From a virus (Duplodnaviria > Heunggongvirae > Uroviricota > Caudoviricetes): a stretch of 23,837 nucleotides of DNA. Location: the IMG/VR virus record IMGVR_UViG_2534681835_000037, positions 1 to 23,837 of that record. One strand, written 5' to 3'. Below are positions 3,882 through 5,826 of the stretch, piece by piece. How positions within the stretch are numbered: the first letter of the stretch is position 1; each line of letters opens with the position of its first letter. The translations under genes and the position numbers were made by a program. Under the pieces are notes generated by a model. The model worked only from the letters and a program-made list of their open reading frames with translations. It searched no databases and was not told the origin of the DNA.

Positions 3882-5826
3882 TCATGCCGCGGCATCCGCG
3901 TTGTTCACTTCCACCGCAATGCTGTCAATCAGCACCGGGTAAGTCGCACCTTTGGTAATGTCTGTCACATGCAGTTTATCCGCCGCAAATGCACTGACCG
4001 GTGACTGCGTCAGCGTGAACGGTGTGCCATCCTGACCATCAATAACCGGCGTCACCTGAAGGCTGTTATTCCCGGCAAAGCGGAAGGCCAGCGTATGCCA
4101 TTCGTTATCAAATGCGCCAAAGGTTCCCAGTTTCAGGTTGTTTGTCGCCACTTTCGCATTGTGGTACATCACATTCAGGTCTTTTGCATCTGTCTGGATG
4201 TAGAACGCTGCCAGCAGGTTATTCCCCCCGTCTCCGGTCAGGGCAACGCCCTGTGGCAGTGAAGATACCGGCCAGTAAAACGCCATAACATACTGGTTCG
4301 CAGCCAGCACTCCCGAAACCTTAAAGCGGCAGCGAATCTGCCCCCTTTCTGTAACAGAGCCGCACCGTTGCCCGCGGCGTACTCCAGCACCCAGCTGCTT
4401 TTACCGGCTTCCTTGGTCAGCTTCACTGCCTTACCTCCGGTTCCCTCCGCATCGCTGACCACTTCTGCCCTGCCGCCACTGGCTGACCATCCCTGTACTT
4501 TCAGGCTTCCCTCTGACTCGCTGGCAAGGTAAGAGAGCAGTGTTGTGACGCCTGTGGCTTCTGCACCGGAAGGCGATGACGGGCGCACCTCTGATACTGT
4601 CGATGATGCCCCCGCGTTTAGCGCCACTCTTCCCGCATGGCGCAAAATCGCCGTTGCCAGACGGTCGGAAATAATCCCAGGCGTGCCCAGGCGCTGAAAT
4701 GGCTCGCCCTGTCCTGTGACGTCCAGGTGGCTGAGCTGTCACGCCATTTCGAACCGTAATATCCGATACCCGGAATGTCCGGGTCTTCTTCCGGTTTGTT
4801 CGTCGGCACATTCACCCCATTCTCATCCGTCATGAACGGTACGAAATGGATATTCTTTTCCGTTTTGTTTTTGTAGCTGCCGTACACCGTCTGGTACGAG
4901 GATTCGTTCTTCTGCTTCCAGAAATACGTCGTGTCCCCGCATATCCAGGGAACACCGTCAGCAGAGCCACCGACGCACTGACCTGCCATATCCGCCAGGT
5001 CTGCACGGAATTTATCAACCTGCGCACCAAACTGTGCTGCGTGATTTGCCGGCGTACCGCCAAAATCAAATTCCCCCTGCATCCACACCACGGCAAACAG
5101 CACATTTTTCGGATTCTTCTTCAGTGCTGCTTTTGTTCGACCGATAAGGTCCTTATACAGCGGCTTGTCCACACCCCAGCGGGTTGAATTCTCCGAGGCA
5201 CCACTCGCGTCACTGTATGTGCCATCGGCTCCGGTGGTGAACGCTGAACCACCACGACAGCACGGAACCAGCAGAATGCCCGCATTCGCCGGTATAAACG
5301 GCAGCAGTTTTTTGGCGATATGCAGCCCCTGCCCCACGGTTCCGTACTGCCCTTTTGACAGGTCCGCTTTCGGATGGTTAAGACGGCTCATGTCCTGCAC
5401 ATCATGCAGACAATGGTCCGCCGGAATGATGTCGTTATATTTGCATGCTGCACCGCCCGGTGTCACCGTACTGCGGCGCGCCAGCTGCTTAATACGCGGG
5501 TCCGGACGGTCATATGTCTCCGGCAGCGGAAGACCTTCACCATACGACATGCCATTTGACTGCCCTGCCAGAACCACAACAAAGTAATACTCCGGGTCTC
5601 TGGTGGCGCTGATTACTGCACCTTCTCCACCTGTCAGCTTCACCACAACAGGTGTGCTCACATCACCTTCTGCGACAATCGCCTGAATAAGTGCTGCGCC
5701 ATCATCCGTATACGAAGAAAACGGCCCACCGTATGGTTGCCATCCTTCACGAATTTTTTGAGCAAGTGCATCAGCAAGGTCTGACGGCGACACCGCCCTG
5801 ACCACATCGTAGTGTTTAAATACCAT
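3882..5826 (-). pseudogene. NanS-p-like sialate O-acetylesterase (SGNH/SASA hydrolase with N-terminal DUF1737-like region), disrupted by frameshifts
   Basis: N-terminal 411 aa frame contains the GQSN motif (VVLAGQSNGMSYGEG) and an N-terminal domain like prophage NanS-p esterases; the coding path continues in two other frames (ORFs 4238..4645 and 3882..4310). One shift is at a C5/G5 run at 4341-4345, another near 4725-4740. Lies upstream of the holin as in Stx-phage architecture. Confidence 0.7.

Follow-up and report, generated by a model that had tools for sequence, protein, structure and literature searches.

Frameshifts in a prophage nanS-p gene of the Escherichia coli DEC8E draft genome are probably consensus errors in a repeated late-gene module

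Introduction

NanS-p enzymes are sialate O-acetylesterases composed of a DUF1737 domain, a SASA/SGNH esterase domain and a lectin-like C-terminus, with published lengths of 636-657 amino acids (aa) (PMC10462455). They de-O-acetylate 5-N-acetyl-9-O-acetylneuraminic acid (Neu5,9Ac2) and mucin sialoglycans, so that lysogens grow on these compounds (PMC10462455; PMC8065619), and esterase activity has been demonstrated for the NanS-p alleles of EDL933 and O104:H4 (PMC8065619). The homologue gp84 of phage phi24B was recently reported to be a capsid-decorating protein that binds via DUF1737 (bioRxiv 10.64898/2026.04.10.717836). Here we analyze a nanS-p gene that is broken twice in the sequence as deposited. 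It lies on the minus strand, at 3882..5826, of a 23,837-nucleotide (nt) stretch of prophage DNA (IMG/VR record IMGVR_UViG_2534681835_000037, positions 1 to 23,837; hereafter the window). An initial annotation, made from the letters alone, had read this locus as a sialate O-acetylesterase gene of the NanS-p type disrupted by at least two frameshifts. Our comparison with intact homologues, with a finished genome and with public sequence collections leads us to conclude that the two frameshifts are very probably consensus errors of a 2012 draft assembly, and that the gene itself is most likely an intact, ordinary nanS-p.

Results

Two single-nucleotide deletions interrupt the nanS-p reading

The nanS-p reading runs from an ATG at 5826-5824 to a stop codon at 3884-3882 and comprises 1945 nt, compared with 1947 nt (648 aa) in intact homologues. 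In the deposited window it splits into three open reading frame (ORF) pieces in three different frames (4618-5826, 4238-4645 and 3882-4310), and no uninterrupted ORF of ~636-657 aa is present. We aligned the 1945 nt with three intact homologues of 1947 nt, taken from O111:H8 strain 8E, from the Stx1-converting phage NC_004913 and from phage Stx2_95, where the gene is named 'yjhS'. The fragments proved colinear with all three, and the alignment contained exactly two indels, each of them a 1-nt deletion causing a -1 frameshift. Of the "at least two" frameshifts that had been proposed, two are thus present in the deposited sequence and no more than two.

The deletion that lies further downstream in the gene (deletion 2) shortens a run of six G on the gene strand to five, which corresponds to the C5 run at 4341-4345 on the plus strand. 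It is located exactly where the initial annotation had suspected a missing base, and restoring one G gives a protein that reads ...LLQKGGQIRCRFKVSGVLAANQYVMAFYW..., as had been predicted. The upstream deletion (deletion 1) removes one G (C on the plus strand) between 4679 and 4680, within codon 383 (GCC[G]TGG on the gene strand); it had been placed near 4725-4740, about 45-60 nt away from its actual position. The 4679/4680 site is not a homopolymer and directly adjoins a single-nucleotide polymorphism (SNP) between the cognate and paralogous copies (A/G at 4679). Over positions 4676-4683 the deleted allele reads CCCAGGCG and the intact allele CCCACGGCG.

When both bases were restored, the product had 648 aa and differed at 3 residues from the closest intact protein, that of strain 8E. 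Such agreement makes colinearity with intact NanS-p far greater than expected by chance, in line with the continuous reading of about 650 aa that had been assembled by changing frame twice. As deposited, the first piece (ORF A; 4618..5826, minus strand) encodes 402 aa, native through residue 382 and followed by 20 out-of-frame residues. The middle segment (4346..4678, minus strand) continues in the second frame with native residues ~383-494, which make up the linker and the beginning of the lectin-like domain.

Strain 8E has an uninterrupted nanS-p gene in its finished genome

Searched as an exact sequence among 153 billion gene positions, the ORF A product was found on a single contig, AIGJ01000050.1 of the 2012 draft assembly of E. 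coli DEC8E (GCA_000249875.2); its sequence is that of GenBank EHW27786.1, 'putative 9-O-acetyl-N-acetylneuraminate esterase [Escherichia coli DEC8E]'. DEC8E is an O111:H8, Stx1a strain (PMC5121400). The window starts ~1 base from the end of this contig, and nanS-p is thus located 4-6 kb from the contig end.

The finished chromosome of O111:H8 strain 8E (CP077465; human, Denmark) matches the entire window with 99.9% identity. In strain 8E, nanS-p is an uninterrupted gene within the published length range (WP_423742752, 648 aa), and the antirepressor (ant) and integrase (int) genes are intact as well. Judging from name, serotype and near-identity of sequence, with no SNP over ~19 kb of prophage and 4.8 kb of chromosome, strain 8E is very likely DEC8E re-sequenced. 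What is apparently the same strain thus has an unbroken gene in its finished genome, which makes the frameshifts likely artefacts and leaves unsupported the broken gene implied by the initial annotation. That annotation had named assembly errors in an otherwise intact gene as the outcome that would speak against it, and our results agree with this outcome as closely as sequence comparison allows.

The alternative is a genuine pseudogene, in which two real 1-nt deletions would have arisen in the DEC8E stock sequenced around 2010, in the course of a prophage decay in which ant and int were damaged too. Both frameshifts are, after all, present in the deposited sequence. Moreover, Shiga toxin-producing E. 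coli carry four to five or more redundant nanS-p copies (PMC8065619), so that the loss of one would be tolerated, and the Prokaryotic Genome Annotation Pipeline (PGAP) labels other nanS-p copies as frameshifted. This reading requires, however, either that strain 8E represents a different lineage or that its finished sequence was over-polished. Independent sequencing did not reproduce the lesions, strain 8E (apparently the same strain) being intact at both sites. Searches with the frameshifted ORF A, the C-terminal fragment and the ant fragment, which included the Logan read-based contigs, recovered the NCBI draft contig only. The exact repaired 648-aa protein was absent from the searched collection, and a look-up through the neighbouring DUF262 gene for read-based contigs spanning nanS-p returned other strains only.

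Differences from strain 8E concentrate in the repeated left end of the window

A base-by-base comparison of the window with strain 8E revealed 24 differences, consisting of 8 indels and 16 substitutions, with zero differences across 5900-22908. In each of the eight indels it is the draft that lacks 1 nt; there are no insertions, and four of the deletions are intergenic. Six of the eight shorten runs that are 4-8 bases long in 8E, the other two being a T3>T2 change and the non-homopolymer site. Apart from the nanS-p deletions at 4341..4345 (C6>C5 on the plus strand) and 4679/4680 (a single C on the plus strand), the left-end cluster comprises T3>T2 at 1912..1913 (after 1911), which splits the antirepressor gene; T4>T3 at 2193-2195; A6>A5 at 3240-3244, which is a paralog-type allele; T7>T6 at 3875..3880, intergenic and just downstream of the nanS-p stop; and A7>A6 at 5900-5905. 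The eighth deletion, A8>A7 at 22910..22916, splits the integrase gene; away from the repeat-rich left end, the window and 8E differ at no other position. The other seven deletions all fall within the first 5.9 kb (P=3.6e-4 under a uniform spread). Likewise, runs of at least 6 bases were miscalled more often in the first 5.9 kb (4/12) than elsewhere (1/36; Fisher p=0.011).

Strain 8E harbours four to five nanS-p copies, and one of its other prophages is 89-96% similar to this 5.9-kb stretch. Two unrelated short-read E. coli drafts end exactly 98 nt inside nanS-p, in the part encoding DUF1737; that short-read drafts break at this point marks the start of the gene as the boundary of a genome-wide repeat.

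All 16 substitutions lie within 3512-5599. In a three-way alignment, 15 of them, together with the A5 allele at 3240-3244, corresponded to the paralogous nanS-p locus of 8E. One patch (5307..5599) carries 13 substitutions relative to the cognate 8E copy, and all 13 are the bases of the paralogous nanS-p copy at 2285220-2287166; the best match to positions 5290-5620 in 5426 genomes was the 8E locus 2285426-2285756, with 330/331 identical nucleotides. Bases of the cognate type are interleaved with those of the paralog type, at 5341 inside the patch and at 3770-3775 between 3763 and 3779. To judge from the sequence, this fine-scale mosaic looks like a column-wise consensus of mixed paralogous reads, and fits neither one conversion tract nor ordinary mutation. 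A single real gene-conversion tract covering 5307-5599 was considered separately and is disfavoured by the interleaved cognate-type bases.

The remaining substitution, C/T at 3512, matches neither the cognate copy nor the compared paralogue, and may derive from a third paralogue of the nanS-p region or be a plain error.

Taken together, the differences across the window bear the mark of a draft consensus that went wrong in a repeat. They do not resemble a normal mutational spectrum, in which substitutions outnumber indels and no platform-type bias is seen. A genuine pseudogene would need eight deletions, no insertions and one substitution unexplained by the compared paralogue, in a genome otherwise identical over ~19 kb. 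Half of these deletions would be intergenic, where selection for decay is irrelevant. It would also have to accommodate the clustering of the deletions in the repeated part near the contig end, the fine-scale paralog mosaic of the substitutions, and frameshifted nanS-p and ant products known from the draft contig only. Given the evidence on both sides, we regard genuine decay of this gene as unlikely.

The deletion alleles are absent or rare in other genomes

The 4679/4680 deletion allele was found in none of the 986 other E. coli complete-genome records that matched (0/986), a further point against a genuine pseudogene. IMG/VR, with 37 contigs of the intact allele, did not contain it either, and exact-pattern scans did not find it in metagenome contigs or in GTDB genome contigs.

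The G5 allele was present in 1/622 E. coli complete-genome records (SMN152SH1) and in two IMG/VR contigs, compared with 69 IMG/VR contigs with the six-base run. Two of these three other G5 carriers contain six and four single-base homopolymer indels in nanS-p, G6>G5 included. They are SMN152SH1 (NZ_CP024618.1 2383913-2385853), with six, and IMGVR_UViG_2531839664_000025, with four. Several homopolymer indels in a single gene identify these carriers as error-prone assemblies, an indication that sequencing artefacts account for many of the nanS-p genes annotated as 'frameshifted' in public assemblies.

That three other public assemblies have the G tract shortened in the same way could also be taken as a sign that the G6/G5 tract acts as a slipped-strand on/off switch (phase variation) or as a site of programmed ribosomal frameshifting. 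A phase-variable gene would be expected to show a long tract and frequent length polymorphism in clean assemblies. The tract found here is short, at six bases, G5 is confined to a single complete-genome record, and the five and three further homopolymer indels of two of the three other carriers point to sequencing error. In addition, the second frameshift, which is unique and lies at a non-repetitive site, would also need to be bypassed, and programmed frameshifting would require two shifts in the same direction (slippery and stimulatory motifs were not looked for). We therefore consider either form of regulation extremely improbable. A related proposal, that the deletions are real and that this nanS-p copy is a recently inactivated DEC8E paralogue, with the G6 tract possibly being a recurrent hotspot that switches copies off, seems to us rather doubtful. 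If it were true, a truncated product of 382 residues would keep DUF1737, Ser90 and His376.

The repaired product has the domains and the position of NanS-p

Pfam and structure comparisons of the repaired protein bore out the assignment to NanS-p-type sialate O-acetylesterases. DUF1737 (PF08410) occupies residues 3-53 (5668..5820, minus strand). The NanS-like SGNH/SASA esterase domain follows at residues 74-396 (4640..5607, minus strand), with PF03629 at 83-278, and matches the E. coli NanS/YjhS structure 3PT5 with E=2.7e-116. The C-terminal lectin-like jelly-roll domain spans residues 426-643 (3900..4552, minus strand), includes DUF6645 (PF20350) at 492-610, and is interrupted by deletion 2; it is identical at 215/218 positions to the solved NanS-p C-terminal domain 6YP6 (E=1e-139).

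Within the esterase domain, the GQSN motif at 88-91 and H376, which is part of an SHFS motif, are kept and aligned to the corresponding NanS residues. We take the Ser of GQSN and H376 to be the catalytic Ser and His. The initial annotation had described an intact N-terminal SGNH domain with a GQSN motif. The motif is indeed kept, but the N-terminus is occupied by DUF1737, and the domain is not intact as deposited: in the alignment to NanS 3PT5, which extends through residue 396, the frameshift at codon 383 hits the final helix of the esterase domain. Were the frameshifts real, ORF A would keep DUF1737, GQSN (Ser90) and His376; from residue 383 on, the final helix of the esterase fold and the lectin-like domain would be missing.

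On the minus strand, the gene order is the Q antiterminator gene (10266-10634), a set of cargo genes, nanS-p, DUF1378, DUF826, holin and lysozyme. The locus thus shows the three-domain architecture, the similarity to solved homologues, the GQSN and His residues and the lambdoid late-region position of NanS-p, features by which we recognize it as a known, ordinary nanS-p gene. Both its architecture and its location agree with published accounts of NanS-p (PMC10462455; PMC8065619). A scan of 3700-6200 for promoters and terminators gave counts no higher than in shuffled sequence.

Other genes of the prophage

The antirepressor gene, on the minus strand, is split by the T3>T2 deletion into ORFs 1819-2181 and 1613-1822, which encode pieces of 120 aa and 66-69 aa. 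It encodes an intact protein of 189 aa in 8E, and T3 was found in 10/10 other loci; the split product occurs only on the draft contig.

The integrase gene, on the plus strand, is split by the A8>A7 deletion into ORFs 22552-22932 and 22965-23837 and is intact in 8E, with 428 aa. A Logan contig from run SRR094977 is identical to the window over 22245-23837 and, over 6190 nt, shows no difference from 8E except at the int A-run. This deletion, unlike the others, lies in unique sequence. The A7 allele could be either a systematic homopolymer under-call or a real mutation; a real mutation would immobilize the prophage. The integrase gene adjoins mlrA (yehV), which lies beyond the end of the window at 23837 (24381-24845 in locus L004). 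A classical integration site of Stx phages is mlrA; the prophage of the window is without stx.

Four genes sit between the Q antiterminator gene (10266-10634, minus strand) and nanS-p, where Stx phages carry stx. They encode a Dcm-type cytosine methyltransferase (9162-10202), a HEPN_MAE_28990 nuclease (8504-9193), the adjoining DUF262/GmrSD_N protein (7344-8501) and an iraM/PmrD-like product (6127-6453). PADLOC matched the DUF262 protein to NsnA (5.6e-46) and PD-T4-2_A (4e-27) and gave no match for the HEPN nuclease. This arrangement looks like an island of defence and moron cargo at the stx position. The DUF262 protein occurs very widely, in 5550 blocks of the collection.

Discussion

Our preferred reading is that the frameshifts arose in the draft consensus. 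The gene belongs to a late-gene module of which each genome has four to five similar copies, and it is located near a contig end; in this setting the consensus probably mixed paralogous reads and under-called homopolymer runs. The draft was presumably made on a platform prone to homopolymer errors, and the same sequencing centre worked in 2012 with 454 Titanium reads and the Celera assembler (PMC3491183). In the cell, nanS-p would be expected to be intact and, by analogy with characterized alleles, to remove the 9-O-acetyl group from Neu5,9Ac2 and mucin sialoglycans, the host setting being a lambdoid, stx-less prophage next to mlrA in E. coli O111:H8 DEC8E.

Several points weigh against this interpretation. 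The identity of strain 8E with DEC8E is deduced from name, serotype and sequence, and the platform of the DEC8E draft is likewise presumed. Deletion 1 (4679/4680) is not in a homopolymer. Short-read polishing of the finished genome could in principle have over-corrected a truly frameshifted copy by means of its intact paralogs. Finally, the integrase A7 allele also occurs in the independent, read-based Logan assembly of run SRR094977, which means that at least that deletion is present in raw reads and could be real; the same observation favours a genuine pseudogene.

The case of nanS-p carries little biological weight in itself, because one broken copy of a multi-copy, characterized esterase would, even if real, be ordinary prophage decay. 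It is instead a caution that apparent pseudogenes in old drafts can be consensus artefacts, especially where a prophage module is present in several copies and lies close to a contig end. Finished genomes are the proper source for the number of functional nanS-p alleles that a strain has, a number relevant to growth on Neu5,9Ac2.

Comparison with known systems

The closest described relatives are the NanS-p proteins of Stx and non-Stx lambdoid prophages, such as 933W z1466/L0105 and phi24B vb_24B_21 (gp84, PDB 6YP6), which have the same three domains, the same late position and the same length class. Their genes, like that of the window, lie between the Q-controlled late promoter region and the holin/lysozyme cassette. 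The window differs from them in that its frame is broken twice as deposited, most likely as an artefact, and in that its prophage is without stx, having upstream a DUF262/HEPN/Dcm cassette and iraM instead.

The nanS-p gene of SMN152SH1 (CR916_RS14080), which PGAP labels a 'frameshifted' DUF6645 protein, has the same G5 allele in the same tract. It is ~93% identical to the window copy and carries six single-base deletions across the gene, but not the 4679/4680 deletion. Chromosomal NanS (YjhS, 9-O-acetyl-N-acetylneuraminate esterase, 3PT5) shares with the window protein the central domain, the GQSN block and the His of SHFS. In contrast to NanS-p, it is without DUF1737 and the lectin-like domain, and it is encoded by a gene of the nan regulon, not by a prophage.
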